From IMG/VR virus record IMGVR_UViG_2693429748_000014: a DNA stretch of 12,787 nt; one strand, given 5' to 3'. Shown here one piece after another: positions 1 to 12,787 of the stretch. Source of the stretch: a virus. Taxonomy: Duplodnaviria > Heunggongvirae > Uroviricota > Caudoviricetes. Under the pieces are notes generated by a model. That model was not told the origin of the DNA, searched no databases, and saw nothing but the letters and a program-made list of their open reading frames with translations. The position numbers and the translations under genes are program-made. Positions within the stretch are counted from its first letter, which is position 1, and the number at the start of each line of letters is the position of its first letter.

Positions 1-72
1 TAAGTGATACTGGTTGTCTGGAGATTCAGGGGGCCAGTCTACCACCCCTGATGTCAGGTAGGAAAACACCAT
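1..72 (-). CDS. 5'-partial ORF of unknown function downstream of D; begins MVFSYLTSGVVDWPPESPDNQYHL and runs off the window start
   Basis: ATG at 72-70 on the minus strand, preceded by an AAGGA-containing stretch; open to the window edge. No recognisable similarity to Ogr, which would follow D in P2. Confidence 0.2.
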   Translation of the reverse strand, partial: MVFSYLTSGVVDWPPESPDNQYHL

Positions 73-190
73 ATGTTTCTGCTCTGTTTTTCCTTAGAAA
101 TAGGCATCCTTGCTGGAACAAAGCGAGCAGCTATATTGACTCTATGTTGTGAGTGTGTTGATCCGTTCTGAGTTAATACATTTAAGTTGC

Positions 191-1300
191 TCACTCTGTT
201 TCTGCTATCCATTCCGGGATTTTTGCCTCAAGCTCAAGCTGCGTGGTAAAGCCGCTGTTATCAATGGTGTGCTCGGCTTTTGCAATAATCCAGTCCTGAT
301 TATCAATCTCGCTTTTAAATCCTGTTACCGTGCCATGCATTTCGGGGTAGAGTTCTGCACGTCCATGCGCCAGTGTGATGGAGAATGATGCGGCTCCGCG
401 TTGTAGCTGCTGCCACTTTGCCGCCGCTGCACGTCTTGCTGCCTGCTCGTTCTGATAAGTTTTGCGTAACACAAACACGTTGCCTTCCGCACCTTCCATA
501 TAGTCGCCTTCCCGGCTGCTGCTTTTCTCCTTTTTTGGTTTTGACGGTTTGCGGCGTTTCACGCTGACTTTTTTCTTTTTCCCGTAATTAAGATCAAGCC
601 AGTAAGCGCGTACCCCCGTATACGCTTCGCGGTCAGCAATGCGGAACTGATGGCGATCGCCGCTGCTGCGTGTGATGGCGAACGAGGGCAACGGCTGGCC
701 CTGTGCGTTCACGCCACCACCGGGCATGATGAATAACAGATTACCGCTTTTTACCGTGGTGATTGCGCCCAGCATTTCCGCCATGCGCGTAAGGAAGGAC
801 ATGTCGCTTTCTTCGGTCTGGTCGGCGTGGTCGATTTCGATATCCATCAGCATTTCGCTGATTTGCGGTTTCAGACCATACCGATGAGCGATGGCGGATA
901 CCACACGCTCAACGGTCACATCATGCCAGGACACCTCACGTTTAACGTTAAATTCAGCCCGAAAATCTGCGCTTCTGGCTGAAACAGTCAGCCTGTCCGG
1001 CGGTCCTTCGTGAGCGATTTCATCAACAATGTAAGTGCCTTTTTCTGTCAGCGGTTCTCCCTTCCAGCCAATGAGAACCGTCAGGCGCGCGCCCCGTGGC
1101 GGTAGCTGCAACTGACCATCCGCATCATCCAGCGTGATGGTGAGCTGGTCCGCCTCAAATCCCCGGTTGTCGGTCAGTGACAGGCTCATCAGGCGCTCTG
1201 CCACGCCTGACAGCGTTTTACCCTCCGCGAGAATATCAAAATCCGGCATTTTCACGGGGTCTGTGCCCTGACTGAGCAATTGCATGGTGGTGTCGGTCAT
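191..1300 (-). CDS. P2 gpD-like tail protein (late control gene D family)
   Basis: Translation recalls P2 gpD motifs (LSLTDNRGFEADQL, SARSADFR, SWHD, FLTR, GDRHQF, REGDYMEG, NSGFTT, lysine-rich KKKKVSVKRRKPSKPKKEK linker). Start placed at the internal ATG at 1300 (MTDTTMQLL) because of the GGGAGGGAG Shine-Dalgarno just upstream; the ORF-track start at 1432 is probably too long. Confidence 0.85.
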   Translation of the reverse strand: MTDTTMQLLSQGTDPVKMPDFDILAEGKTLSGVAERLMSLSLTDNRGFEADQLTITLDDADGQLQLPPRGARLTVLIGWKGEPLTEKGTYIVDEIAHEGPPDRLTVSARSADFRAEFNVKREVSWHDVTVERVVSAIAHRYGLKPQISEMLMDIEIDHADQTEESDMSFLTRMAEMLGAITTVKSGNLLFIMPGGGVNAQGQPLPSFAITRSSGDRHQFRIADREAYTGVRAYWLDLNYGKKKKVSVKRRKPSKPKKEKSSSREGDYMEGAEGNVFVLRKTYQNEQAARRAAAAKWQQLQRGAASFSITLAHGRAELYPEMHGTVTGFKSEIDNQDWIIAKAEHTIDNSGFTTQLELEAKIPEWIAETE

Positions 1301-1457
1301 CTGCTCCCTCCCTGTGTGGCATGGTCGCATGTGCGTGCGGAGGGGGTTACTGCTTTTTGTTGTCGCCGTGGCGGGAGAATGGCGCAGGGGTGAGATTACG
1401 CGCGTGGTGGGTGATGATTGTTGCCGAATCATTTAACGGATACAAGGGGTTGAAGCT

Positions 1458-2642
1458 ATGAGTGAAACTCGTTTTCATGGTGCCCGTGTTACGGAAAATA
1501 CCGACCTGGTAACAGCGATTAACGATGTTGATTCCAGCGTTATCGGTATCGTGGCAACGGCGGATGATGCGGACGCGGAGCTGTTCCCGCTGAACAAGCC
1601 CACACTGCTGCCCCGCGTCAATGACGTGCTGGGAAAATGCGGAACAACGGGGACGCTTTATCGTGCGCTTAAGGCCATCGCAGACCAGGTGAGCACAAAG
1701 GTGATCGTCGTTCGCGTGGCTGAACACAAAGAAGAAGACGGAAAAACGCAGGATCAACTGGTTATCGGTGGTTCTGAATCTGACGGCAGCTATACGGGGA
1801 TGTATGCGCTGCTTGTTGCAGAGCAGGATGAAAGCATCGGATACCGTCCGCGTATTCTGGCCGCGCCGGAGCTGGACACGGAGGCGGTGACAAAATCCCT
1901 GTGCGTGATTGCGGGTAAACTGCGCGCGTTTGTGTATGCCTCATGTCATGACTGTAACACGATGGCTGAGGCAATTACCTACCGCCAGAAATTCAACGAA
2001 CGTGAGGTGATGCTCTTATGGCCGGACTTCATCGCCTACAACCCGAAAAGTGGCAAAAACGAAACGTTCCCCGCGCCTGCCTATGCGTGCGGCCTTCGTG
2101 CGTACATTGACCATGAGCAGGGCTGGCACAAATCGCTGTCCAACGTTCCGGTTAAAAATGTGCTGGGGATGTCCAGGCATGTGTTCTGGTCGTTGCAGGC
2201 CGAAGACAGTGATGCCAACAGCCTCAACAACAAAGAAATCACGACCATTATTCGTCGCAACGGGTTCCGCTTCTGGGGCAACCGCACACCGGAAACGAAC
2301 GCCTACATCTTTGAGGTGTATACCCGAACCGCACAGGTGCTGGCTGATTCAATTGCGGAAGCGCAGTTTGAAACCATCGACAGTCCACTGACGCCTGCGA
2401 ACGTGAAGGATGTTATCGGTGCCATCAGGGCAAAACTGGATTCACTGGTTACTGCCGGGAAACTGATTGGGGCGTCGTGCTGGTATGACGTGGTGGATAA
2501 CGGCACCACGAATTTACGTCAGGGGCGCGTGCGTATTCGCTACAAATATACGCCTGTTCCCCCGCTGGAAGACATGGAGCTTTACCAGTCGTTTACTGAT
2601 GAATTCTTTGGTCCCGCATTTGCGGTGCTGGGAGGTGCCTGA
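1458..2642 (+). CDS. contractile tail sheath protein (P2 gpFI family)
   Basis: 394 aa; motifs LRAFVYAS, WPDF, DHEQGWHKSLSNV, RRNGFRFWGNRT, YTRTAQV and YKYTPVPPLE match tail sheath proteins as I recall them; AAGGGG RBS; stop overlaps next start (ATGA). Confidence 0.9.
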   Translation: MSETRFHGARVTENTDLVTAINDVDSSVIGIVATADDADAELFPLNKPTLLPRVNDVLGKCGTTGTLYRALKAIADQVSTKVIVVRVAEHKEEDGKTQDQLVIGGSESDGSYTGMYALLVAEQDESIGYRPRILAAPELDTEAVTKSLCVIAGKLRAFVYASCHDCNTMAEAITYRQKFNEREVMLLWPDFIAYNPKSGKNETFPAPAYACGLRAYIDHEQGWHKSLSNVPVKNVLGMSRHVFWSLQAEDSDANSLNNKEITTIIRRNGFRFWGNRTPETNAYIFEVYTRTAQVLADSIAEAQFETIDSPLTPANVKDVIGAIRAKLDSLVTAGKLIGASCWYDVVDNGTTNLRQGRVRIRYKYTPVPPLEDMELYQSFTDEFFGPAFAVLGGA

Positions 2643-3154
2643 TGGCTGTACCAAAACATCTTCGCTTTTTTACGCTGTTTGTGGATGGTGAAAACGAAGT
2701 GGGTAAGGTGACGTCCGTCACTCTGCCTAAGCTGACGCGCAAAACCGACAGCTACCGGGGTGGTGGCATGATGGGAGCGGTAAGTATTGATCTCGGCCTG
2801 GATGACTCCGCGCTTGATGCGAGCTTTGTCATGGGGGGCGCAGTTCGTGAGCTGTTCCTTAAGTATGGCGGCACGATTGACGGTACGCTGCTGCGTTTTG
2901 CGGGTGAATACTACACCGACGCTGAAAGCGACCTGTATGAAGTCGAAATGCGCGGACGTGTGACGGAAATTGATATGGGGGAAGCCAAACAGGGCGAAGC
3001 CACATCACACACTTACGCCATTAAAAACACCTACTACAAGCTGAGTGTTAACGATCGCCCGTTGTGGGAGATTGACCTGCTGAACTTCATTTACCGGAAG
3101 GACGGCAGGGACATTGTGCCCGATCGCATCCGTTCCGCGCTCGGGCTTGGCTGA
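2642..3154 (+). CDS. tail tube protein (P2 gpFII family)
   Basis: 170 aa immediately after the sheath gene; translationally coupled (ATGA overlap) with GGGAGG RBS; size and position typical of the FI-FII pair. Confidence 0.85.
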   Translation: MAVPKHLRFFTLFVDGENEVGKVTSVTLPKLTRKTDSYRGGGMMGAVSIDLGLDDSALDASFVMGGAVRELFLKYGGTIDGTLLRFAGEYYTDAESDLYEVEMRGRVTEIDMGEAKQGEATSHTYAIKNTYYKLSVNDRPLWEIDLLNFIYRKDGRDIVPDRIRSALGLG

Positions 3155-3208
3155 TAAGTAATATGCAGGCGGCGCAGTGCGTCGCCTCTGACTGAAAGGA
3201 GTTTCCTG

Positions 3209-3574
3209 ATGAAAGAGACGAAAAACATCGATACCGAAAACACGGTCGTTGCTGACACTGTGAAAGAAACCAGTGAGCGTGGCGTAAAACTTACCCAACC
3301 AATTGAGCGAGGCGGCGAAAAAATCACGTATGTGGAGATCACCGGGGCTATTGAGCAGGCTGGATCTCTGCGAGATTTGTCGCTGTCTGATGTGCTGAAT
3401 TTGAAAGCGGAATCCATGTTTACGCTGCTGTCACGCGTGACATCACCGCGACTGGATGAAGTGACGATCAAAAAAATGGCATCCCGTGACTTTATTCAGT
3501 TATGTGTGGTTGCCGTAAATTTTTTGAGCGGTGCGGACTCTGGCGAGAAGAACGAACAGGCGACGGAAGCCTGA
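3209..3574 (+). CDS. tail assembly chaperone (P2 gpE-like), zero-frame product
   Basis: 121-aa ORF between tube and tape measure genes; AGGAG RBS 8 nt upstream; contains the TTTTTTG slippery heptamer at 3520-3526. Confidence 0.75.
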   Translation: MKETKNIDTENTVVADTVKETSERGVKLTQPIERGGEKITYVEITGAIEQAGSLRDLSLSDVLNLKAESMFTLLSRVTSPRLDEVTIKKMASRDFIQLCVVAVNFLSGADSGEKNEQATEA

Positions 3575-3738
3575 TCACGGTTGTGTGCTTTGAGCACATA
3601 GAAGACTTTGTGGCGGATATTGCCGCCATTTTTAACTGGTCGCCCGCCGAAATCTTCATGATGACGCCCGGCGAAGTGGTTAGCTGGCGTGAGCGGGCGG
3701 CACTTCGCAGCGGGAATGCAGACAATGAAGACTCTTGA
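3209..3738 (+). CDS. gpE+E'-like frameshift fusion product (-1 slip at T TTT TTG, 3520-3526)
   Basis: Slippery heptamer lies in-frame as N-F-L. The -1 frame is open from there to the TGA at 3736-3738 (ORF-track protein 3502..3738) and overlaps the tape measure start, as in the P2 E/E' and lambda G/GT arrangement. Confidence 0.6.
3520..3526 (+). promoter_or_regulatory. programmed -1 ribosomal frameshift slippery site TTTTTTG
   Basis: Heptamer seen directly in the sequence with the correct zero-frame phasing (aaT TTT TTG); same heptamer is used in P2 E/E' by recollection. Confidence 0.6.
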
Positions 3739-6532
3739 TATCCGGGTCGCTTTCAGCGCCGTTGACAGGCTGACCCGGCCTGCCGAAAACGCCCGCCGCC
3801 TGATGGGGCAGTTTGGTGACTCCATCCAGCGAACGCAGGGGGCGATCAAAAATCTCGAGCGTCAGGCGCGTTCATTTGAGCGCGCCCGTGACGCTGTCAG
3901 TAAAGCGGATGCGGGCATCGTGAAAGCACGACGCCAGCTTAACGCCCTTAATCAGTTACAACGCACGGGTACAGTGCTCAGCGAAAAACAACAAAAGCTG
4001 ATGCAGCAGTTAAGCACCCGGCTTGAACGCCTGAATGAATCGCGCACACGGGAAATTCAGAAAATGCGGGAACTTGGCGGAGAGCTGAAACGCCACGGCA
4101 TTTCCCTGACAGGCAGCGATAACACCATCCAGCAGGCCATCAGACGCACCGGACAATACAACAACCAGCTTGAACGCGAACGGCGGGCGCTTGCGCGTGT
4201 AACGCAGGCGCGTGAGCGGTATTCACGCGCGCAGGAAACAGCGGGAAAACTGAAAACAGGTGGTGCGCTGGCAACAGGTGCGGCGGCAGCGGGCGGCTAT
4301 GCTGCCGGGCGTTTTTTGCAGCCCGCTATCGGGTTCGGGAAAGAGATGTCCCGTGTTCAGGCACTGACGCGAATCGATAAAAACAGCCCGCAGTTTAAGG
4401 CGCTGCGTGAGCAGGCGTTAAAACTTGGCTCTGAAACGCAGTTCACCGCAGGCGATGCCGCCAGTGGACAGGCATTTCTTGCAATGGCTGGTTTCACACC
4501 GCAGGCCATTCAGGCTGCGCTTCCCGGCGTGCTGAGCATGGCAACGGCTGGCGGTATGGACCTCGGCGAGACGGCGGATATTGGTTCCAATATCCTGACG
4601 CAGTTCGGCCTCTCTGCTGACCAGATGGACCGGGTCGGTGACACACTTACCGCAGCGTTTACCCGTACCAACACTGACCTTCGCGCACTGGGCGAAACCA
4701 TGAAATATGCAGGTCCGGTGGCGGGTAAGCTGGGAATATCGCTGGAGCAGGCCGCAGCGATGGCGGGCGTGCTGGCGAAGATGGGTATCAGGGGGAGTGA
4801 TGCAGGTACAGCGTTGCGTAAAAGCCTGGCCAATCTGTCATCACCGCCAAAGGCAGCGGCAGAAGCACTGAAAGAGCTGGGGGTGTCAGTTGCTGACGCC
4901 AAAGGCAAAATGCGCCCGATGGAGAATGTGCTGGCCGATCTCTATAAAGCCACCCGCAAATACGGGGAGGTTGACCGGGTATCGTTCTTTAAGGACATTG
5001 CCGGAGAAGAGGCTTTCACATCATTTATGGGCCTCGTTGATGCGGCAGGTGACGGCTTCTTAGCCAAACTGAGAAAAGAACTTGAAGGCGCGCGCGGTGA
5101 GGCAGAACGCACGGCAAAGGTTATGGCCAATAACCTTGATGGCAACCTGAAATCACTCGGCAGTGCATGGGAAGGTCTGCGTATTCGCATCAGTGATCTG
5201 GTTGACGGTCCGCTGCGTTCTGTCACGCAGTGGCTCACGCGGGTTGTCTCAAAGGTGACGGCGCTGGCGCAGGCCCACCCGGCACTGACGCGCCAGTTAC
5301 TGATAGCGGGAGGCGCACTGCTGGCGACAACAGCAACGGTTGGTTCGTTGTCTCTGGTTATTGGGGTGCTTCACGGGAAGCTGGCTACGTTGCGTCTCGG
5401 TTTTTCTCTCCTGACCGAATCAATGAATGTTGTCAGGGTTCTGCCTGCATTATGGGGAATGGTGACGGGTTCCGTTTCTTTACTTGGTGGCGCTATCGGG
5501 GCGCTGTTCAGTCCGGTTAGTCTTATCGTGGCTGCGCTTGCCGGAGCTGCCGTTCTTATCTGGAAATACTGGGATCCCATCAGGGCATTTTTTGCCGGGG
5601 TGTTCAGCGGGATTATGGAAAGGCTGACCCCGTTGCGCGAAACCTTTGAACGGTTTGGCCCTGTTTTTGATGTCGTGCGCGATGGGATTATTCAGGTCTT
5701 TAACTGGTTTAAATCGCTGCTGTCACCGATGGAGTCCAGCAAGGAAACGCTGGATAAATGTGCCAGTGCTGGCGAGATATTCGGTAACGTTCTTGGCGGT
5801 GCGTTACAACTTGTTCTGACACCTGCAAAAATGCTACTGGATACGCTGGCGTGGATACTTGAAAAACTTGGCGTCCTTCCGGATGAAGCGGAAAGGGCGC
5901 GCAAGAAAATCGAAGACGCACAGCGTGCGGCCATTCTTCAGGACAAGGTTGCCTTGCTTCAGGGGGACCTGGCGAAAATCAATCCGCCGAAGCCTGTGGA
6001 AAATGGCAATGGCACCGGAGGTGATAAACCCAAAGACAACAAACCGCTCACAGACAGCAATACCGGGACGCTACGCAGACTCAGCAAAATTGCTGATAAC
6101 ACAGGTAAGCTGGTTGATGAGACGAAAAAACGCATTGGCCCCGGCGATATTGTCTTTAAGAACCTGCCCCGCGCACTTGCTGTTCGTGGGGAGTGGCAGG
6201 AGCGGAAGATTGCGCAGGTCAGTAAGCCTGCCCCCGCAATTAATATCACACCCGTGGTCCCGGCTCCGCTGCCTCCGGCGCTGGTCCCTGTTGTTGCGGC
6301 CAGCTCCCGCCCGGTGGCGGAGGCCATACGCTCTCCAGTGGCATCAGTTCCTGTAACTTCCCGTAACCGGGAGCCTGTTGCCTCCGGATTTGGTGGTGAA
6401 ATTCATGTTCATCTGCATAACGTTGTTACGCAGAATCCCCGCGAACTGGCGAAACTGGTCGGTGAAATGGTCAGGGCAGAAATGGAACGGCGCGCCCGTG
6501 CCGGGCGTGGCAGTTTTTACGATAAAGATTGA
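3725..6532 (+). CDS. tail tape measure protein (P2 gpT-like)
   Basis: Very long ORF (GTG 3689 to TGA 6532) after the chaperone pair; coiled-coil-like N-terminal region, central hydrophobic Gly/Ala/Leu-rich block, Pro/Ala-rich C-terminus. Start uncertain: ATG 3725 (GGGA about 9 nt upstream) preferred, with ATG 3716 and GTG 3689 as alternatives. Confidence 0.8.
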   Translation: MKTLDIRVAFSAVDRLTRPAENARRLMGQFGDSIQRTQGAIKNLERQARSFERARDAVSKADAGIVKARRQLNALNQLQRTGTVLSEKQQKLMQQLSTRLERLNESRTREIQKMRELGGELKRHGISLTGSDNTIQQAIRRTGQYNNQLERERRALARVTQARERYSRAQETAGKLKTGGALATGAAAAGGYAAGRFLQPAIGFGKEMSRVQALTRIDKNSPQFKALREQALKLGSETQFTAGDAASGQAFLAMAGFTPQAIQAALPGVLSMATAGGMDLGETADIGSNILTQFGLSADQMDRVGDTLTAAFTRTNTDLRALGETMKYAGPVAGKLGISLEQAAAMAGVLAKMGIRGSDAGTALRKSLANLSSPPKAAAEALKELGVSVADAKGKMRPMENVLADLYKATRKYGEVDRVSFFKDIAGEEAFTSFMGLVDAAGDGFLAKLRKELEGARGEAERTAKVMANNLDGNLKSLGSAWEGLRIRISDLVDGPLRSVTQWLTRVVSKVTALAQAHPALTRQLLIAGGALLATTATVGSLSLVIGVLHGKLATLRLGFSLLTESMNVVRVLPALWGMVTGSVSLLGGAIGALFSPVSLIVAALAGAAVLIWKYWDPIRAFFAGVFSGIMERLTPLRETFERFGPVFDVVRDGIIQVFNWFKSLLSPMESSKETLDKCASAGEIFGNVLGGALQLVLTPAKMLLDTLAWILEKLGVLPDEAERARKKIEDAQRAAILQDKVALLQGDLAKINPPKPVENGNGTGGDKPKDNKPLTDSNTGTLRRLSKIADNTGKLVDETKKRIGPGDIVFKNLPRALAVRGEWQERKIAQVSKPAPAINITPVVPAPLPPALVPVVAASSRPVAEAIRSPVASVPVTSRNREPVASGFGGEIHVHLHNVVTQNPRELAKLVGEMVRAEMERRARAGRGSFYDKD

Positions 6533-6538
6533 GGAGTC

Positions 6539-7033
6539 ATGGCCATGATGATGATCTACGGCATGTTTGTTTTTGAGCTGCGTACATTGCCGCATCAGCA
6601 GTTACAGCAAAACAAAAGCTGGCGGCATGTGAAAAATGAACGCGTTAACCGTTCGGCAAGCTGGCAGTATATCGGTGCAGGTGATGAGCGCATCGTTCTT
6701 TCTGGTGTGCTTTATCCTGAAATTACAGGTGGCGAAGTGTCGCTGTCGCTGCTGACCACGCAGGCGTATACAGGACGACCCTGGCCTCTGATTGATGGCG
6801 TCGGGCAGATTTACGGCATGTATGTCCTGACCGAAACGAATACGACCCGCTCCGAGTTTGATCGCTACGGTAAGGCGAAAAAGATAGAATTTTCACTGAC
6901 TCTTGAACGCTGTGATGAGGATTTGCGGGAGCGCCTGCAATCCTCATCGTTCAGCGATATGCTGTCCGGCTTCAAAGATAAGGTAACATCATCCCTTAAC
7001 AGCGCGGCCAGTTCAGTTAAAGGGTTGTTCTGA
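6539..7033 (+). CDS. tail protein gpU-like (tail sheath-terminating / tail completion protein)
   Basis: 164-aa ORF directly after the tape measure gene with GGAG RBS; size and position match P2 gpU. Confidence 0.8.
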   Translation: MAMMMIYGMFVFELRTLPHQQLQQNKSWRHVKNERVNRSASWQYIGAGDERIVLSGVLYPEITGGEVSLSLLTTQAYTGRPWPLIDGVGQIYGMYVLTETNTTRSEFDRYGKAKKIEFSLTLERCDEDLRERLQSSSFSDMLSGFKDKVTSSLNSAASSVKGLF

Positions 7034-7044
7034 TTTAACACAAA

Positions 7045-7079
7045 AACCGCTAATGGTCAGATTAGCGGTTATTTTGTTT
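7045..7079. terminator. bidirectional intrinsic terminator between convergent U and invertase genes
   Basis: Perfect 10-bp inverted repeat AACCGCTAAT / ATTAGCGGTT with 6-nt loop, A-run upstream and ATTTTGTTT downstream. Confidence 0.6.
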
Positions 7080-7656
7080 CCTGACTCTTCTCTATTGTTC
7101 CGATTGATTCTCCTGCGGGGTGGTAACGATAAATCGTCGATATACCAATGCCGTAAATTATTGCCAGTTGTTTTCTGTCGTGCCCGTTTTTGATCAGCCT
7201 TGCTATTTGCTCATGCTGTTCTTTTGTCAGCTTCGGTCGACGTCCGCCTGTGCGCCCCCGTGCGCGTGCTGCCGCCAGTCCGGCCAGTGTACGTTCAACA
7301 ATTAATTCACGTTCCATTTCAGCCAGGGCACCCATCACGTGGAAGAAAAAACGCCCCATTGGAGAAGATGTATCTATGCTGTCGGTCAGACTGCGAAAAT
7401 TAATTCCTCGCTCCCGTAGTTCCCCGACGAGAGAAATCAGATGTTTCATGCTTCGCCCGAGGCGATCCAGTTTCCAGACAACCAGCGTGTCACCTTTTTG
7501 AAGGCGCTTTAAAGCGCGTTTTAATCCCGGTCGGTCTGTCTTTGTCCCGCTTAATTTATCTTCAAATATTTGTTCACATCCTGCACAAACAAGAGCGTTT
7601 CGTTGCAGGTCTGTATTCTGGTCATTTGTTGATACCCTTACATAGCCAATCAGCAC
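7069..7656 (-). CDS. serine site-specific DNA invertase (Gin/Pin/Cin/Hin family)
   Basis: N-terminus VLIGYVRVSTNDQNTDLQRNAL with catalytic-serine motif, WKLDRLGRS, GRFFFHVMGALAEMERELIVERT and a C-terminal helix-turn-helix, all hallmark invertase sequences. Start set at GTG 7656 (GGGAGA RBS) rather than the TTG at 7674 used by the ORF track. Confidence 0.9.
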   Translation of the reverse strand: MLIGYVRVSTNDQNTDLQRNALVCAGCEQIFEDKLSGTKTDRPGLKRALKRLQKGDTLVVWKLDRLGRSMKHLISLVGELRERGINFRSLTDSIDTSSPMGRFFFHVMGALAEMERELIVERTLAGLAAARARGRTGGRRPKLTKEQHEQIARLIKNGHDRKQLAIIYGIGISTIYRYHPAGESIGTIEKSQETK

Positions 7657-7710
7657 GCTGAATCTCCCGTCCAAAAGCGCAAATCATGCCATGCAGGCCG
7701 GAAACGGCCA

Positions 7711-7736
7711 TTATCTAAAACCTCGGTTTACAGGAA
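7711..7736. promoter_or_regulatory. 26-bp invertase crossover site (gix/cix/hix-like): TTATCTAAAACCTCGGTTTACAGGAA
   Basis: Imperfect palindrome with AAACC-N2-GGTTT core; matches the Mu gix sequence as I recall it at 25 of 26 positions. Lies between the invertase start and the fibre cassette. Confidence 0.7.
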
Positions 7737-7760
7737 ACGGTAAACAAGGCTGGTAACGCC

Positions 7761-8747
7761 GTGCAAAAAAATGGCGATACGTTGTCCGGTGGACTTACTT
7801 TTGAAAACGACTCAATCCTTGCCTGGATTCGAAATACTGACTGGGCAAAGATTGGGTTTAAAAATAATTCGGATGCAGACACCGATTCCTACATGTGGTT
7901 TGAAACAGGCAACAACGGCAATGAATATTTCAAATGGAGACACCGCATCATTGGCACCCGGCCTAAAGACCTGATGAATCTTAAATGGAATGCTTTGTCT
8001 GTTCTTGTTGAAGCCCTTTTCAGCAGTGAAGTGAAAATATCGACAGTCAATGCACTGAGGATATTTAATTCATCTTTTGGTGCCATTTTTCGTCGTTCTG
8101 AAGAATGCCTGCATATCATCCCTACACGAGAGAATGAAGGGGAAAATGGTAATATAGGGCCACTACGCCCCTTTACGCTTAATCTCAGAACTGGCCGGAT
8201 AAGCATGGGGCATGGTCTTGATGTTACAGGGGATATATTTGCAAACCGTTTTGCAATTAACAGTAGTACCGGCATGTGGATTCATATGCGTGACCAGAAT
8301 GTTATTTTGGGACGTAATGCGGTATCCACTGATGGTGCTCAGGCTTTGCTCCGTCAGGACCATGCCGACCGCAAATTTATGATTGGCGGTCTGGGAAATA
8401 AGCAATTTGGCATCTACATGATTAATAACTCAAGGACAGCCAATGGCACCGATGGTCAGGCGTACATGGATAATAACGGGAACTGGCTTTGCGGCTCGCA
8501 AGTTATTCCCGGCAACTATGGCAATTTTGATTCCAGATATGTGAAAGATGTTCGACTTGGTTCACAGCAATATTATGGAGTGAACAACTGGCAAACATGG
8601 AATTTTCAGTGCCCGTCAGGCTATGTACTGACGGGGATTAACGTACAGGATACCGGAAAAAACTCTGCCGATAATATTGCAGGCGTTCATTACAGGCCAG
8701 TGCAAAAGTATATAAATGGCACTTGGTATAATGTGGCGAGTATTTAA
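7761..8747 (+). CDS. tail fibre C-terminal variable cassette (Sv-like); reading frame is actually open from 7719
   Basis: Contains the [10 protein letters not shown] fibre motif and ends [11 protein letters not shown]. The GTG start at 7761 is probably not a real initiation site: the frame is open back into the right half of the crossover site, as expected for a cassette fused to a constant N-terminal part by inversion. Confidence 0.75.
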
Positions 8748-8748
8748 T

Positions 8749-9276
8749 ATGATGCACTTAAAGAACATAAAAGCAGGTAATGCTAAAACAGTGGAGCAGT
8801 ATGAGTTAACAAAGAAGCACGGAGTCATCTGGCTTTACTCTGAGGACGGAAAAAACTGGTATGAGGAAGTGAAGAACTTTCAGCCAGACACAATAAAGAT
8901 TGTTTACGATGCAAATAATATTATTGTCGCCATCACCAAAGATGCCTCCACGCTTAACCCTGAAGGTTATAGCGTCGTTGAGGTTCCTGATATTACAGCT
9001 AATCGTCGTGCTGATGATTCCGGTAAGTGGATGTTTAAGGACGGAGCTGTGGTTAAACGGATTTATACGGCTGACGAACAGCAACAACAGGCCGAATCAC
9101 AAAAGGCCGCATTGCTTTCCGAAGCTGAATCAGTCATCCAGCCGCTGGAACGCGCTGTCAGGCTGAATATGGCGACGGACGAGGAACGCACACGACTGGA
9201 AGCATGGGAACGCTACAGTGTTCTGGTCAGCCGTGTGGATACGGCAAAGCCAGAATGGCCACAAAAGCCTGAGTAA
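8749..9276 (+). CDS. tail fibre assembly chaperone (Tfa / Mu U / P2 G family)
   Basis: Starts [10 protein letters not shown] one nucleotide after the cassette stop; paralogous to the convergent ORF 9305..9838; conserved [19 protein letters not shown] and KWMFKDG motifs. The longer ORF-track start at 8716 overlaps the fibre gene and is less likely. Confidence 0.8.
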
Positions 9277-9281
9277 AAATT

Positions 9282-9301
9282 AAGGCCCGATATCGGGCCT
9301 T
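9282..9301. terminator. palindromic hairpin / bidirectional terminator between convergent tfa genes
   Basis: AAGGCCCGATATCGGGCCTT is a perfect 20-bp palindrome with A/T-rich flanks on both sides. Confidence 0.5.
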
Positions 9302-9304
9302 GTT

Positions 9305-9838
9305 TCATTCTGGTTGTTCGGGAAACGTTACTGGCAGGCTGGAGGTGTCTGTGGATTCGACCTTCTGCGCATAGAGCATCCACTCGGTTAATTTTTGTTT
9401 ATTCTCGTCGGAAATAATGCCCAGCCGTAGCTGTGAGTCCCATAGCTGGGTTTTATCCCTGACGAGCTGTAGCAGGCTTTGCTTTTCATTTTCCGCTTGT
9501 TGCCTCTGCTCTTCCCCGGTATAAGTTCGCTTTATCACTACGCCATCTTTGAACATCCATTTACCTGAAATATCAGCCCGGCGATTTGCTGTAATATCAG
9601 GAACCTCAACGACGCTTGCGCCTTCCGGATTAATTGCTGAAACATCCTTTTCAATACAAATAATAACGCCGTTGTGGTCATAGACCATTTTCAACGTATC
9701 AGGCTGAAAGTTCTTTTGTTCCTCATACCAGTTTTTCCCATCCTCTGTATAAAGCCATTTGATGTTAAATTGTTTCGTTAGCTGGTATTGCTCTTTTGTT
9801 TCAGGATTACCAGCAGAAATGTTTTTTAAGTGCATCAT
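9305..9838 (-). CDS. tail fibre assembly chaperone, second paralogue (Tfa')
   Basis: Starts MMHLKNISAG; N-terminal two-thirds closely similar to the plus-strand chaperone while the C-terminus diverges, as expected for cognate chaperones of alternative fibres. Confidence 0.8.
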   Translation of the reverse strand: MMHLKNISAGNPETKEQYQLTKQFNIKWLYTEDGKNWYEEQKNFQPDTLKMVYDHNGVIICIEKDVSAINPEGASVVEVPDITANRRADISGKWMFKDGVVIKRTYTGEEQRQQAENEKQSLLQLVRDKTQLWDSQLRLGIISDENKQKLTEWMLYAQKVESTDTSSLPVTFPEQPE

Positions 9839-9840
9839 CG

Positions 9841-10197
9841 TTAAATACTCCCCGCGTTATACCACGTCCCATTAATGCAATACTGAATTGGCCTTGCCTG
9901 AGTTGTATCAATTAGTTCATCTCTGTTTGAGTTAACGGAACCGGTAACAACATAACCTGACCTGTCAGACCATCCGGGACCATTCCATGTCTGAACAGAT
10001 AACAGACCACCAAGGCGAATACCTGTAATAAACCTTGAGTTACATTCTGCCTGCGTATATGCACCAACATCTCCCGCAGAGGGTTTGCGGGTTGTGGTGT
10101 AAAACTCTGAGGTGTACTGGCAATAGCGGACACTACCATTTGTTCTTTTTTTAAGCAGCCATCTGATGATATTTTTCCCTGAAGGCTGAAGGCTATT
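9841..10197 (-). pseudogene. truncated alternative tail-fibre C-terminal cassette (Sv' remnant), about 118 codons with no start codon
   Basis: Hand translation of the minus strand gives ...RLGGLLSVQTWNGPGWSDRSGYVVTGSVNSNRDELIDTTQARPIQYCINGTWYNAGSI*, homologous to the C-terminus of the plus cassette (SGYVLTG ... [11 protein letters not shown]). Stop TAA at 9843-9841, 2 nt before the Tfa' start. Frame closed upstream by TGA at 10200-10198, where GC content drops. Confidence 0.55.
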
Positions 10198-10250
10198 TCA
10201 ATATCGCTATGCTGCGGCAGCATTTAACCCCTTGTAATTCATCGCCATAA

Positions 10251-10279
10251 TTGATTTAATTCACAAATAAAACTATAAT
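10251..10279 (+). promoter_or_regulatory. predicted sigma70 promoter TTGATT-N17-TATAAT for the methyltransferase gene
   Basis: Hexamers at 10251-10256 and 10274-10279 with 17-bp spacer in an AT-rich region just upstream of the ORF. The predicted transcription start would leave a very short leader. Confidence 0.35.
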
Positions 10280-10291
10280 ATGGTGAAATTA

Positions 10292-10948
10292 ATGAAAAAA
10301 AACACAGATGATGGGGCTAAAATTTACACACCACTTACCCTAAAGCTTTATGACTGGTGGGTTTTGGGAGTATCAAATCGGCTTGCATGGGGATGTCCTA
10401 CAAAGGAACACCTTCTTCCACACTTTCTGGAACATTTAGGTAACAACCATCTGGATATTGGTGTTGGAACTGGGTTTTACCTTACTCACGTACCTGAGAG
10501 TAGTCTGATATCTTTAATGGATTTGAACGAAGCTAGCCTGAACGCGGCATCTACAAGGGCTGGGGAATCAAAAATTAAACATAAAATTAGCCATGATGTT
10601 TTTGAACCTTATCCCGCGGCGTTACATGGTCAATTTGATTCCATTTCCATGTTTTACCTTCTTCACTGCCTGCCTGGAAATATATCTACAAAAAGCTGTG
10701 TAATACGCAATGCGGCGCAGGCCTTAACTGATGATGGAACTCTATACGGAGCCACAATTCTTGGCGATGGAGTTGTGCACAATAGCTTCGGTCAAAAACT
10801 GATGCGCATTTACAATCAGAAAGGCATCTTTTCAAACACAAAAGATTCCGAAGAAGGCTTAACACATATACTCTCAGAGCATTTCGAGAATGTTAAAACC
10901 AGGGTTCAAGGTACTGTAGTAATGTTTTCCGCTTCAGGGAAAAAATAG
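10292..10948 (+). CDS. class I SAM-dependent methyltransferase (cargo / moron gene)
   Basis: Motif I-like LDIGVGTGFY, acidic residue after the second strand (LMDLNEASL) and later FDSISMFYLLHCLPG / LTDDGTLYGATILGDG motifs, consistent with the Rossmann methyltransferase fold. Clearly lower GC than the flanks. Start at ATG 10292 (GGTGA RBS) preferred; ATG 10280 possible. Confidence 0.65.
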   Translation: MKKNTDDGAKIYTPLTLKLYDWWVLGVSNRLAWGCPTKEHLLPHFLEHLGNNHLDIGVGTGFYLTHVPESSLISLMDLNEASLNAASTRAGESKIKHKISHDVFEPYPAALHGQFDSISMFYLLHCLPGNISTKSCVIRNAAQALTDDGTLYGATILGDGVVHNSFGQKLMRIYNQKGIFSNTKDSEEGLTHILSEHFENVKTRVQGTVVMFSASGKK

Positions 10949-10955
10949 CATCCAA

Positions 10956-10988
10956 CCGCAGCACGTTCTTGCTTAAGACGTGCTGCGG
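10956..10988. other. stem-loop after the methyltransferase gene (CCGCAGCACGT ... ACGTGCTGCGG)
   Basis: 11-bp perfect inverted repeat 8 nt after the stop codon; no T-run follows on the plus strand, so terminator function is uncertain. Confidence 0.3.
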
Positions 10989-11146
10989 CATAATCCCAAT
11001 GATTACTCCCTGACAGGGTTCGTAGGCCACTCAATATCAGGTGCAGTTGATGTATCAACACGGTTCAGCAACACCCGATACTTTTTCTAGGCTTCCACCA
11101 CCAGCACGACAAGATGCCGCATACAGTGACCCAGTCAGTCCAGTTT

Positions 11147-11329
11147 TCAGACAACCAGTGCGTCACCTTTTTGAAGGCGCTTTAAAGCACGTTTTAATCC
11201 AGGTCGGCCTGTCCTTGTTCCGCTTAATTTATCTTCAAATATTTGTTCATATCCTGCACAAACAAGAGCGTTTCGTTGCAGGTCTGTATTCTGGTCATTT
11301 GTTGATACCCTTACATAGCCAATCAGCAC
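11147..11329 (-). pseudogene. 5' fragment of a second Gin/Pin-family invertase gene (about 60 N-terminal codons), truncated
   Basis: Encodes VLIGYVRVSTNDQNTDLQRNALVCAGYEQIFEDKLSGTRTGRPGLKRALKRLQKGDALVV then a stop; 4 amino-acid differences from the intact copy. Homology to the intact gene ends near 11139. Confidence 0.7.
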
Positions 11330-11383
11330 GCTGAATCTCCCGTCCAAAAGCGCAAATCATGCCATGCAGGCCGGAAACGGCCA

Positions 11384-11409
11384 TTATCTAAAACCTCGGT
11401 TTACAGGAA
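11384..11409. promoter_or_regulatory. second copy of the 26-bp gix-like crossover site, in direct orientation to the first
   Basis: Identical sequence TTATCTAAAACCTCGGTTTACAGGAA, 3673 bp downstream of the first copy. Confidence 0.65.
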
Positions 11410-11433
11410 ACGGTAAACAAGGCTGGTAACGCC

Positions 11434-12420
11434 GTGCAAAAAAATGGCGATACGTTGTCCGGTGGACTTACTTTTGAAAACGACTCAATCCTTGCCTGGA
11501 TTCGAAATACTGACTGGGCAAAGATTGGGTTTAAAAATAATTCGGATGCAGACACCGATTCCTACATGTGGTTTGAAACAGGCAACAACGGCAATGAATA
11601 TTTCAAATGGAGACACCGCATCATTGGCACCCGGCCTAAAGACCTGATGAATCTTAAATGGAATGCTTTGTCTGTTCTTGTTGAAGCCCTTTTCAGCAGT
11701 GAAGTGAAAATATCGACAGTCAATGCACTGAGGATATTTAATTCATCTTTTGGTGCCATTTTTCGTCGTTCTGAAGAATGCCTGCATATCATCCCTACAC
11801 GAGAGAATGAAGGGGAAAATGGTAATATAGGGCCACTACGCCCCTTTACGCTTAATCTCAGAACTGGCCGGATAAGCATGGGGCATGGTCTTGATGTTAC
11901 AGGGGATATATTTGCAAACCGTTTTGCAATTAACAGTAGTACCGGCATGTGGATTCATATGCGTGACCAGAATGTTATTTTGGGACGTAATGCGGTATCC
12001 ACTGATGGTGCTCAGGCTTTGCTCCGTCAGGACCATGCCGACCGCAAATTTATGATTGGCGGTCTGGGAAATAAGCAATTTGGCATCTACATGATTAATA
12101 ACTCAAGGACAGCCAATGGCACCGATGGTCAGGCGTACATGGATAATAACGGGAACTGGCTTTGCGGCTCGCAAGTTATTCCCGGCAACTATGGCAATTT
12201 TGATTCCAGATATGTGAAAGATGTTCGACTTGGTTCACAGCAATATTATGGAGTGAACAACTGGCAAACATGGAATTTTCAGTGCCCGTCAGGCTATGTA
12301 CTGACGGGGATTAACGTACAGGATACCGGAAAAAACTCTGCCGATAATATTGCAGGCGTTCATTACAGGCCAGTGCAAAAGTATATAAATGGCACTTGGT
12401 ATAATGTGGCGAGTATTTAA
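11434..12420 (+). CDS. tail fibre C-terminal variable cassette, second copy (identical to 7761..8747)
   Basis: ORF-track translation is identical to the first copy. Confidence 0.7.
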
Positions 12421-12421
12421 T

Positions 12422-12787
12422 ATGATGCACTTAAAGAACATAAAAGCAGGTAATGCTAAAACAGTGGAGCAGTATGAGTTAACAAAGAAGCACGGAGTCA
12501 TCTGGCTTTACTCTGAGGACGGAAAAAACTGGTATGAGGAAGTGAAGAACTTTCAGCCAGACACAATAAAGATTGTTTACGATGCAAATAATATTATTGT
12601 CGCCATCACCAAAGATGCCTCCACGCTTAACCCTGAAGGTTATAGCGTCGTTGAGGTTCCTGATATTACAGCTAATCGTCGTGCTGATGATTCCGGTAAG
12701 TGGATGTTTAAGGACGGAGCTGTGGTTAAACGGATTTATACGGCTGACGAACAGCAACAACAGGCCGAATCACAAAAGGCCGCATTG
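12422..12787 (+). CDS. tail fibre assembly chaperone, second copy, 3'-truncated by the window end
   Basis: Same [10 protein letters not shown] start and sequence as 8749..9276 at offset +3673; runs off the window. Confidence 0.7.

Follow-up and report, generated by a model that had tools for sequence, protein, structure and literature searches.

The P2-like prophage and its inversion switch

Positions 40-10110 of the window (the whole stretch of 12,787 nucleotides analysed here, IMG/VR record IMGVR_UViG_2693429748_000014) were found to be 100.000% identical to L016, one copy of a P2-like prophage locus that adjoins pheT-ihfA and is referred to here as locus P. The order at this locus is a Gin-like invertase, a left crossover site, the tail-fibre variable cassette Sv, the tail-fibre assembly gene tfa, the opposed tfa′ and Sv′, a right crossover site and the constant part of the fibre gene H, which runs on intact in L016 (656 aa). 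The window opens inside an insertion sequence whose terminal inverted repeat (1-41), judged by its sequence, is probably that of IS2. Positions 1-39 match L019, where an IS2-type element with transposase ORFs of 121 and 301 aa lies between a PIN_4 gene and gpD, but not L016, which has no insertion sequence at this place. The P2-like tail genes, assigned from their ORFs and Pfam families, follow at 191-7033 and are 100% identical to those of L016: gpD (191-1300, minus strand, GPD domain), the sheath FI (1458-2642), the tube FII (2642-3154), E/E′ (3209-3738), the tape measure (3725-6532) and gpU (6545-7033).

A complete serine DNA invertase of the Gin/Pin type (7069-7656, minus strand, 195 aa) comes next. 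It has an N-terminal catalytic (Resolvase) domain, a C-terminal helix-turn-helix domain (HTH_7) and the catalytic serine, and it aligns with the Gin structures 3UJ3 and 4M6F (E value about 1e-100) through the catalytic motif YVRVSTNDQ, which places it among the small serine recombinases. Its near-identity to gin suggests that the 5′ part of the gene may also contain a Fis-dependent recombinational enhancer. The inversion end-points in the comparisons of L016 with L017 and of L026 with L034 fall within the crossover sites. Behind the left crossover site of the P switch (7711-7736, plus strand, core TC at 7723-7724) lie the silent variable cassette Sv (7761-8747, plus strand, an ORF of 328 aa) and tfa (8749-9276, plus strand, Caudo_TAP domain); according to exact-match extents, tfa is identical from 9081 onward to that of the lambdoid locus described below. 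Among the 25 contigs read, finished genomes included, the exact 328-aa Sv occurred only in the P2-like prophage context, behind a full invertase or IS600 and never behind an invertase stub. On the minus strand, tfa′ (9305-9838, Caudo_TAP domain, related to tfa by the inverted repeats I1, I3 and I5) adjoins the last 89 codons of H (9841-10107), which form its current variable part Sv′. The segment is therefore loaded as an inversion switch would be, with Sv and tfa on one strand, tfa′ and Sv′ on the other, two Caudo_TAP proteins and the inverted repeats I1-I6. It is also known in both orientations, as L016 and L017 differ by a 3.1-kb inversion and L003 is likewise in the opposite state. The crossover sites in the window are of the left type only and both lie on the plus strand, while the right site is beyond the IS600 break described next; its inverted partner in the identical locus L016 lies at 19329-19354.

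The window departs from L016 at 10107-10110, where Sv′ is interrupted by IS600. The terminal 81 nt of this element (10108-10188, the C-terminal end of the transposase) are 100% identical to IS600 in L005 and stop inside the insertion sequence. The Sv′/IS600 junction was not found in IMG/VR, and the sole other case seen is L009, in which the other half of Sv′ lies at 17603-18253. A paralogue SNP among IS600 copies was considered as the cause of the break after nt 81 and rejected, since 25 IS600 ends showed none at nt 82. A single filler base, A, follows at 10189 in place of the native C or T, which vary among paralogous copies within S. sonnei. The draft scaffold L010 has an N at exactly the equivalent position, followed by the same AGGCTATTTC. 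The linking junction itself was absent from 5426 finished E. coli genomes (no place covered it), its exact 35-nt pattern had no match in IMG/VR, GTDB representatives or JGI metagenomes, and the 103-aa ORF that spans it was not on record. A literature search on this S. sonnei locus returned nothing specific.

The lambdoid orphan switch and the second copy

From position 10190 the window continues with the left part of a module (10190-11138) from a second locus, referred to here as locus R. This orphan switch lies where a lambdoid prophage ends, next to trpA, and its parts are a gene for a methyltransferase, a fragment of tfa, an invertase stub of 60 aa, a crossover site and an invertible segment of its own. 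In L026-L035 its context reads J-lom-stf-tfa-tfa′-Sv′-site-stub-MTase-...-trpA. The left part of the module, and beyond it the whole left flank of the second repeat copy (10190-11351), is 100% identical to L009, L013, L015 and L033. It opens with codons 1-11 of a tfa fragment of 89 aa (10190-10223, minus strand), followed by a SAM-dependent methyltransferase gene (10280-10948, plus strand, assigned from its methyltransferase domains) and a second tfa fragment (about 10954-11100). The invertase stub (11147-11329, minus strand, 60 aa) covers just the start of the Resolvase domain and carries the nine R-type alleles; 7443 blocks of the collection list exactly this stub protein. R loci invert in nature, as is seen from L026 and L034, between which 3.1 kb is cleanly inverted and the half-sites are exchanged, and because their own invertase is a 60-aa stub, a trans-acting invertase must exist.

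The sequence then changes from R-type to P-type within 11251-11435, an interval placed by allele comparison, with the second crossover site (11384-11409) inside it. R alleles end at 11250, P-type alleles (G/G/G) occur at 11352, 11373 and 11379, and the Sv types part after 11435. All 22 R loci examined, finished genomes included, have A/A/C at these three positions together with R-type cassettes. What follows, as delimited by repeat comparison and exact-match extents, is a second copy of the P-type Sv cassette with the first 366 nt of tfa (11434-12787, plus strand), and the window ends 34 nt past the point where tfa becomes identical in P and R loci.

An ungapped comparison of the window with itself gave a direct-repeat offset of exactly 3673 bp with homology starting at 7466/11139, left of which the identity between the copies drops to a random level (0.2-0.4). 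The two copies, A and B, differ at exactly nine positions (7474, 7486, 7488, 7516, 7528, 7535, 7541, 7546 and 7577) and then agree at every one of the 1537 nt that run from 7578/11251 to the end of the window at 9114/12787. The 26-nt crossover site TTATCTAAAACCTCGGTTTACAGGAA occurs twice, in both cases on the plus strand, against a chance expectation of 0. We thus confirmed what the sequence-only reading had described, namely two direct copies 3673 bp apart, about nine differences in the first ~110 bp (all nine within 7466-7577, and not many more on exact alignment), identity from there onward and a complete invertase in copy A alone (195 aa with Resolvase and HTH_7, compared with the 60-aa stub of copy B). 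At the sequence level this description of the repeat is accurate and well past chance.

Its interpretation was borne out in part. Copy A starts within the invertase gene (7466-7577, codons about 27-64), and comparison of loci showed that its nine P-type alleles form one fixed pattern, CCTGCTTCC, in 19 of 19 P loci, as the alternative alleles do in the 22 lambdoid-type loci. What had been described as a divergence gradient is merely the allelic difference between two invertase 5′ ends. Nor did the label of a tandem duplication of one unit hold, because the copies are not derived from each other: A belongs to the P2-like switch, whereas the left flank of B belongs to the lambdoid switch. A tandem duplication would have the same alleles flanking both copies and a single join point, and its two copies and novel junction would recur in independent or finished assemblies. 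Instead, the alleles at the two left edges are those fixed in two different loci, the spacer is foreign (the IS600 end plus the R module), and in the finished S. sonnei genome AR-0030 (CP032523.1) the P invertase (3.721 Mb) and the R stub (4.272 Mb) lie in the same orientation about 550 kb apart.

Origin of the repeat

Taken together, we consider it probable that the repeat is an assembly or scaffold chimera of two separate, known S. sonnei tail-fibre switches and not a true tandem duplication. The segments come from loci P and R, and the breakpoints coincide with repeat boundaries, namely the IS2 end (1-41), the IS600 end at 10108, the base at 10189, the R-to-P change in the common stretch 11251-11435 and the window end 34 nt into the common part of tfa; the exception is the inner IS600 end at nt 81. 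The joins would have been made in the assembly rather than in the cell. The window would be a contig or scaffold built from short reads of a Shigella sonnei-type genome, the two loci having been threaded into one path during assembly or scaffolding, and the source strain would carry IS600 in the Sv′ of locus P. Such a path would leave P into the IS600 end and jump, via one filler base, to a contig beginning at the base that is variable between paralogous methyltransferase modules. It would then pass through the R invertase stub into the stretch common to P and R (11251-11435), exit a second time on the P-type branch and halt on re-entry into the tfa segment common to both loci. The nine mismatches are explained by the alleles that P and R each have fixed at the 5′ end of the invertase gene, and the perfect identity behind them by the same P sequence being written twice. 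Of the earlier proposal of recombination or gene conversion between two related switch loci, or an assembly collapse, the two related loci were borne out and an assembly problem is the likeliest cause, but as a chimeric join or expansion instead of a collapse.

A sample of the many S. sonnei assemblies was inspected, and the same loci were found mis-joined in other drafts of the species, always across N's. In the L045 scaffold the order is P / N / R / N / P, both parts matching the window at 100% identity, P is linked to R across 11 N's in L009, and R pieces are repeated and joined by single N's in L010-L013. None of the finished genomes searched had the linking junction. Against a chimera, however, stand the absence of any N from the window itself, the unexplained end of the IS600 piece at nt 81 and the overhangs of 41, 81 and 34 nt, which do not fit any one k-mer size. 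The R flank of L045 counts against it too, since there the P-type G/G/G alleles stand before a proper R-type cassette, and this hybrid may be a genuine allele of the lineage and no collapsed bubble.

An alternative explanation, which we regard as unlikely, is that the adjacency alone is artificial and that copy B is a real hybrid R locus of this sublineage, having acquired a P-type site region and Sv-tfa cassette by RecA-dependent gene conversion between flanking homologies, on the left the 5′ end of the invertase gene and on the right the 3′ end of tfa from 9081 onward. In that case the Sv-tfa cassette would truly be present twice, in identical form, at loci 550 kb apart. P and R match exactly over 101 nt at 7578-7678 and over at least 93 nt at 9081-9173, which could support such a homologous exchange, and cassettes are mosaic among these prophages, with tfa and Sv parts 83-92% identical across loci. 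The R flank of L045 also carries the P-type G/G/G alleles. However, in L045 the same hybrid flank leads into a proper R-type cassette, the 22 R loci uniformly combine A/A/C with R-type cassettes, the 328-aa Sv was never behind a stub in the 25 contigs, and the window stops exactly at the common tfa boundary, as a graph path would. The hybrid left edge of copy B had no full-length match above 95% identity in finished E. coli genomes.

The R-to-P change can be placed only within 11251-11435, crossover site included, and R loci invert despite their stub, which would agree with an origin of copy B in site-specific recombination at the P and R crossover sites, carried out by an invertase acting in trans between the prophages, in the whole culture or in a subpopulation whose reads confused the assembler. 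Strand exchange by a serine invertase is confined to the 2-bp core; the three alleles at 11352, 11373 and 11379, which lie outside the site on the R side, should thus have remained A/A/C as in the 22 R loci. Placing the change strictly in the 101 nt of 11251-11351 would exclude this route altogether, a placement made less firm by the L045 R flank, which has the same three P-type alleles before a normal R cassette. In addition, the left sites of P and R lie 550 kb from each other in direct orientation, and exchange between them would yield a deletion and a circle, a reaction that Gin-family enzymes disfavour. Site-specific exchange therefore appears highly improbable.

It is also quite improbable that the whole array is physical, with a copy of the R orphan switch module and its methyltransferase gene captured beside an IS600 stump in the P2-like invertible region of one S. 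sonnei sublineage. IS600 would have inserted into Sv′, an illegitimate join of IS600 nt 81 with the tfa fragment would have imported the R module, and recombination in the common invertase 5′ region would have remade the P-type site-Sv-tfa, giving a true 3673-bp direct repeat with one invertase serving both copies. The continuous sequence would fit such an array, the IS600 insertion at the identical site in Sv′ is real in at least one other strain (L009), and IS-rich Shigella genomes rearrange often. Nevertheless, at least two rare events would be needed and the join was not found in any collection searched. It lies away from the IS end, makes no use of microhomology and includes a non-native filler base; a microhomology-mediated deletion was rejected because the common AGGCT is present twice and the A is inserted. 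A simple deletion between P and R was rejected as well, since from the finished-genome arrangement it would take out the roughly 550 kb between ihfA and trp, an interval that on the E. coli K-12 map holds the terminus, dif and essential genes.

If the array were physical after all, one Gin-like invertase would face two direct sites and two identical Sv-tfa cassettes and could delete or amplify the cassette and not only flip it, a modest curiosity concerning serine invertase action at directly repeated sites. The earlier suggestion of deletion as the favoured outcome at direct sites is a general one; in cis, invertases of the Gin/Hin family have a strong preference for inverted sites, and sites in direct orientation would be poor substrates.

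Relation to known switches and drafts

Both underlying systems are of known kinds, one a switch of the Gin/Pin type within a P2-like prophage, the other an orphan switch that still undergoes inversion in trans. The value of the case is mainly cautionary, as prophage tail-fibre modules that are invertible and occur in several copies in an IS-rich genome, such as that of Shigella, yield chimeric contigs or scaffolds that mimic tandem duplications or recombinant switches. Some chimeras are deposited without an N at the join, and one sits in IMG/VR as a "viral genome" (L045). The chimeric drafts (L045, L009 and L010-L013) contain the same P and R pieces with the same kinds of boundaries and have N's at the joins, whereas the window has a real base, A, and its join is unflagged.

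The P switch resembles Gin and the G segment of phage Mu, Cin and the C segment of P1 and P7, and Pin and the P segment of e14. The catalytic domain of its invertase is almost identical to that of Gin, the 26-nt crossover site is of the gix/cix type, two sets of tail-fibre C-terminus and assembly gene oppose each other, and the DNA is 87-96% similar to the Mu-like, P1 and P7 invertible segments. It differs from these systems in lying in a P2-like prophage, between gpU and the fibre gene H, and in this strain its expressed variable part is broken by IS600, while the window does not reach its right-hand site. The left flank of copy B matches, at 99-100% identity, the orphan lambdoid segments with a truncated pin that adjoin trpA or potB in E. 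coli and Shigella. Natively, R-type cassettes and the fibre gene stf come after the stub, while in the window a P-type cassette does. Similar chromosomal, prophage-borne Pin-type invertases with an invertible tail-fibre segment are the Shigella pin loci, among them S. boydii pinB with the B segment and related loci of other subgroups, a relation drawn from the deposited P1 annotation, which gives 93% identity to the S. boydii pinB locus.

The repeat and its two switch loci

Alignment of the window to itself at an offset of 3673 bp revealed homology from 7466 (copy A) and 11139 (copy B) onward, with nine mismatches between the copies (7474, 7486, 7488, 7516, 7528, 7535, 7541, 7546 and 7577) followed by identity over 1537 bases, up to the final base of the window. 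The 26-nt crossover site TTATCTAAAACCTCGGTTTACAGGAA was found at 7711-7736 and 11384-11409, on the + strand both times and with no inverted partner within the window, while copy A is preceded by a complete 195-aa serine invertase and copy B by a 60-aa stub. The sequence-only reading had described the offset, the nine mismatches, the subsequent identity and the whole invertase at copy A accurately, but had labelled them a tandem duplication with a divergence gradient. We found instead that the nine positions are fixed alleles of two loci, as all 19 loci of the P2-like prophage switch (locus P) read CCTGCTTCC and all 22 loci of the lambdoid prophage switch (locus R) read TTCAACCTT. In S. sonnei AR-0030, the P invertase (3.721 Mb) and the R stub (4.272 Mb) lie roughly 550 kb apart in the same orientation. 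Fixed alleles and separate positions in one genome indicate that the copies are two different switch loci and no mutual duplicates. The tandem duplication is most likely no real feature of the genome.

Locus P comprises P2-like tail genes (gpD, sheath, tube, E/E', tape measure and gpU; 191-7033), the invertase gene (7069-7656, - strand) and, after the crossover site, the silent fibre cassette Sv (7761-8747), tfa (8749-9276), the opposed tfa' (9305-9838) and the final 89 codons of the current variable part of the fibre gene (9841-10107). In its catalytic domain, the invertase shows near-identity to phage Mu Gin (3UJ3 and 4M6F, both with E about 1e-100). Window 40-10110 showed 100.000% identity to L016, a prophage inserted beside pheT-ihfA, where the sequence runs on into a whole H gene (656 aa) and then I and J, and this same prophage is also present in finished genomes named S. 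sonnei AR-0030 and AR-0426 in a published table. Among genomes, the 3.1-kb P segment occurs both ways round with end-points in two inverted sites; locus P is an ordinary tail-fibre inversion switch of the Gin/Cin/Pin family. In this prophage family (window 191-7033; compare L001 and L016), the FI-FII-E-T-U block lies the opposite way round to gpD/ogr and the V-W-J-I-H block, and the invertase gene is placed between U and the fibre segment. Finished S. sonnei genomes carry an IS600 within the left crossover site, split as ACACCTCA / AACCTCGGTTTACAGGAA (L017 17521-17546; also the loci L018, L021, L023 and L024; corresponding to window 7711-7721), which should lock the P segment, and some of them carry a second IS600 in tfa'. 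In the orientation of the window, the IS600 that cuts the fibre gene (9841-10107) interrupts the variable part that is attached to the fibre constant part, so that the fibre gene is disrupted in this state and it is the silent cassette (7761-8747) that remains intact.

Four loci (L009, L013, L015 and L033) match window 10190-11351 at 100% identity. In finished genomes, this R module is the end of a lambdoid prophage beside trpA, with the native order J, lom, stf, tfa, tfa', Sv', crossover site, 60-aa stub, 45-aa ORF, SAM-dependent methyltransferase and tfa fragment; in ETEC H10407 it adjoins potB instead. Locus R, an orphan switch, is widespread: 7443 blocks of the collection list its exact stub. 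Two R loci (L026 and L034, 6834-9952 in both) differ by a clean inversion with half-sites swapped at the core and are otherwise 99.8-100% identical. R therefore continues to invert in nature although it has only a stub, presumably by means of an invertase acting in trans. S. sonnei has several paralogs of the methyltransferase module (window 10280-10948; L006-L008 10001-12628; L013), which differ by a few SNPs (10189, 10279, 10290, 10299, 10732, 10902 and 10985), and an ipaH-type (LRR + NEL) effector gene follows immediately downstream of one of them. On either side of the native gene stand direct repeats of a tfa fragment (10954-11100 compared with L026 11279-11426 and L002 6765-6862; 88-89% identical), which suggest that an older duplication or insertion made the module.

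Junctions and the origin of the array

The first 41 nt of the window form the end (inverted repeat) of an IS2-type element, which another locus (L019) has at the equivalent place between a PIN_4 gene and gpD; such a start within a repeat points to the window being an entire short-read contig. It ends 34 nt beyond the point (9081) where P-type tfa turns identical to R-type tfa. At 10107/10108 (join a), the fibre gene gives place to an IS600 end (TGAGGTGTACTGG...), with a 100% match over 81 nt (10108-10188). Scaffold L009 shows the identical Sv'/IS600 junction, its remaining Sv' half adjoining another IS600 end, which shows that some strains truly carry IS600 inserted in Sv'. The IS600 piece breaks off internally, at nt 81; no variation at nt 82 that could explain the break was found among 25 IS600 ends, and the overhang lengths at the window ends and the IS600 piece are not compatible with a common k-mer size.

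The piece is followed by a single A (10189) and by the R module from 10190 (join b). The native base preceding AGGCTATTTC is C or T, differing between the S. sonnei methyltransferase paralogs, and never A, while the independent draft scaffold L010 has a single N at exactly this position, then AGGCTATTTC. Join b is not an IS-terminus junction, and the AGGCT microhomology was not used.

Copy B carries R alleles through 11250, the P alleles G/G/G at 11352, 11373 and 11379 (A/A/C in 22 of 22 R loci) and P-type Sv past 11435 (join c). P does not differ from R within 11251-11351 or, provided that the left P site is intact, within 11380-11435, and the three SNPs lying in between make up a closed bubble of the kind that assemblers can collapse; on the other reading, the lineage really has G/G/G in an R context. 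Since G/G/G is explicable either way, the R-to-P change can be placed only within 11251-11435. The hybrid pattern was absent from JGI metagenomes and GTDB representatives and had one match in IMG/VR, the record L045, in which G/G/G stands in an R context without the P cassette and so is no sure sign of one. That copy B is a real gene-conversion product of the R locus, its adjacency alone being artificial, appears rather unlikely, and an invertase-mediated exchange is highly improbable.

A chimeric assembly path is the simplest account of the window. It would leave P into an IS600 end, pass via one filler base to a contig of collapsed repeats starting at a paralog-variable position, run through the R stub into a node shared by P and R, exit a second time on the P branch, and stop upon re-entry into the shared tfa node. 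This account is supported by the coincidence of every breakpoint with a repeat boundary, by the P-R distance in finished genomes, by the occurrence of the 328-aa Sv in P context only among 25 contigs read, by the absence of join b and of the hybrid left edge of copy B from 5426 finished E. coli genomes, and by the absence of join b from three large collections (IMG/VR, GTDB representatives and JGI metagenomes). A wholly physical array is slightly less probable than gene conversion at R, as several rare events would be required and a simple P-R deletion would cost roughly 550 kb, from ihfA to trp, an interval that on the E. coli K-12 map holds the terminus and essential genes.

Chimeras in other drafts

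L045 (IMGVR_UViG_2695420708_000013) consists of the P left flank (window 2531-7762, 100%), a single N and R sequence (window 10238-11435, 100%, G/G/G included), then the normal R invertible segment with 1 kb of stf, a single N and the P right flank. With N joins at 5233 and 10309, this 'viral genome' is a lambdoid switch module spliced between P2-like prophage flanks, and chimeras of this type thus sit in public viral collections. Nothing among the loci here is new in kind, and the main value lies in a warning on chimeric prophage records. In L009, P is linked to R through 11 N's, and in L010-L013 R pieces are strung in alternating orientation by single-N joins, one exactly at a crossover core. 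Together with those of L045, these joins indicate that S. sonnei short-read scaffolds routinely chimerise P and R.
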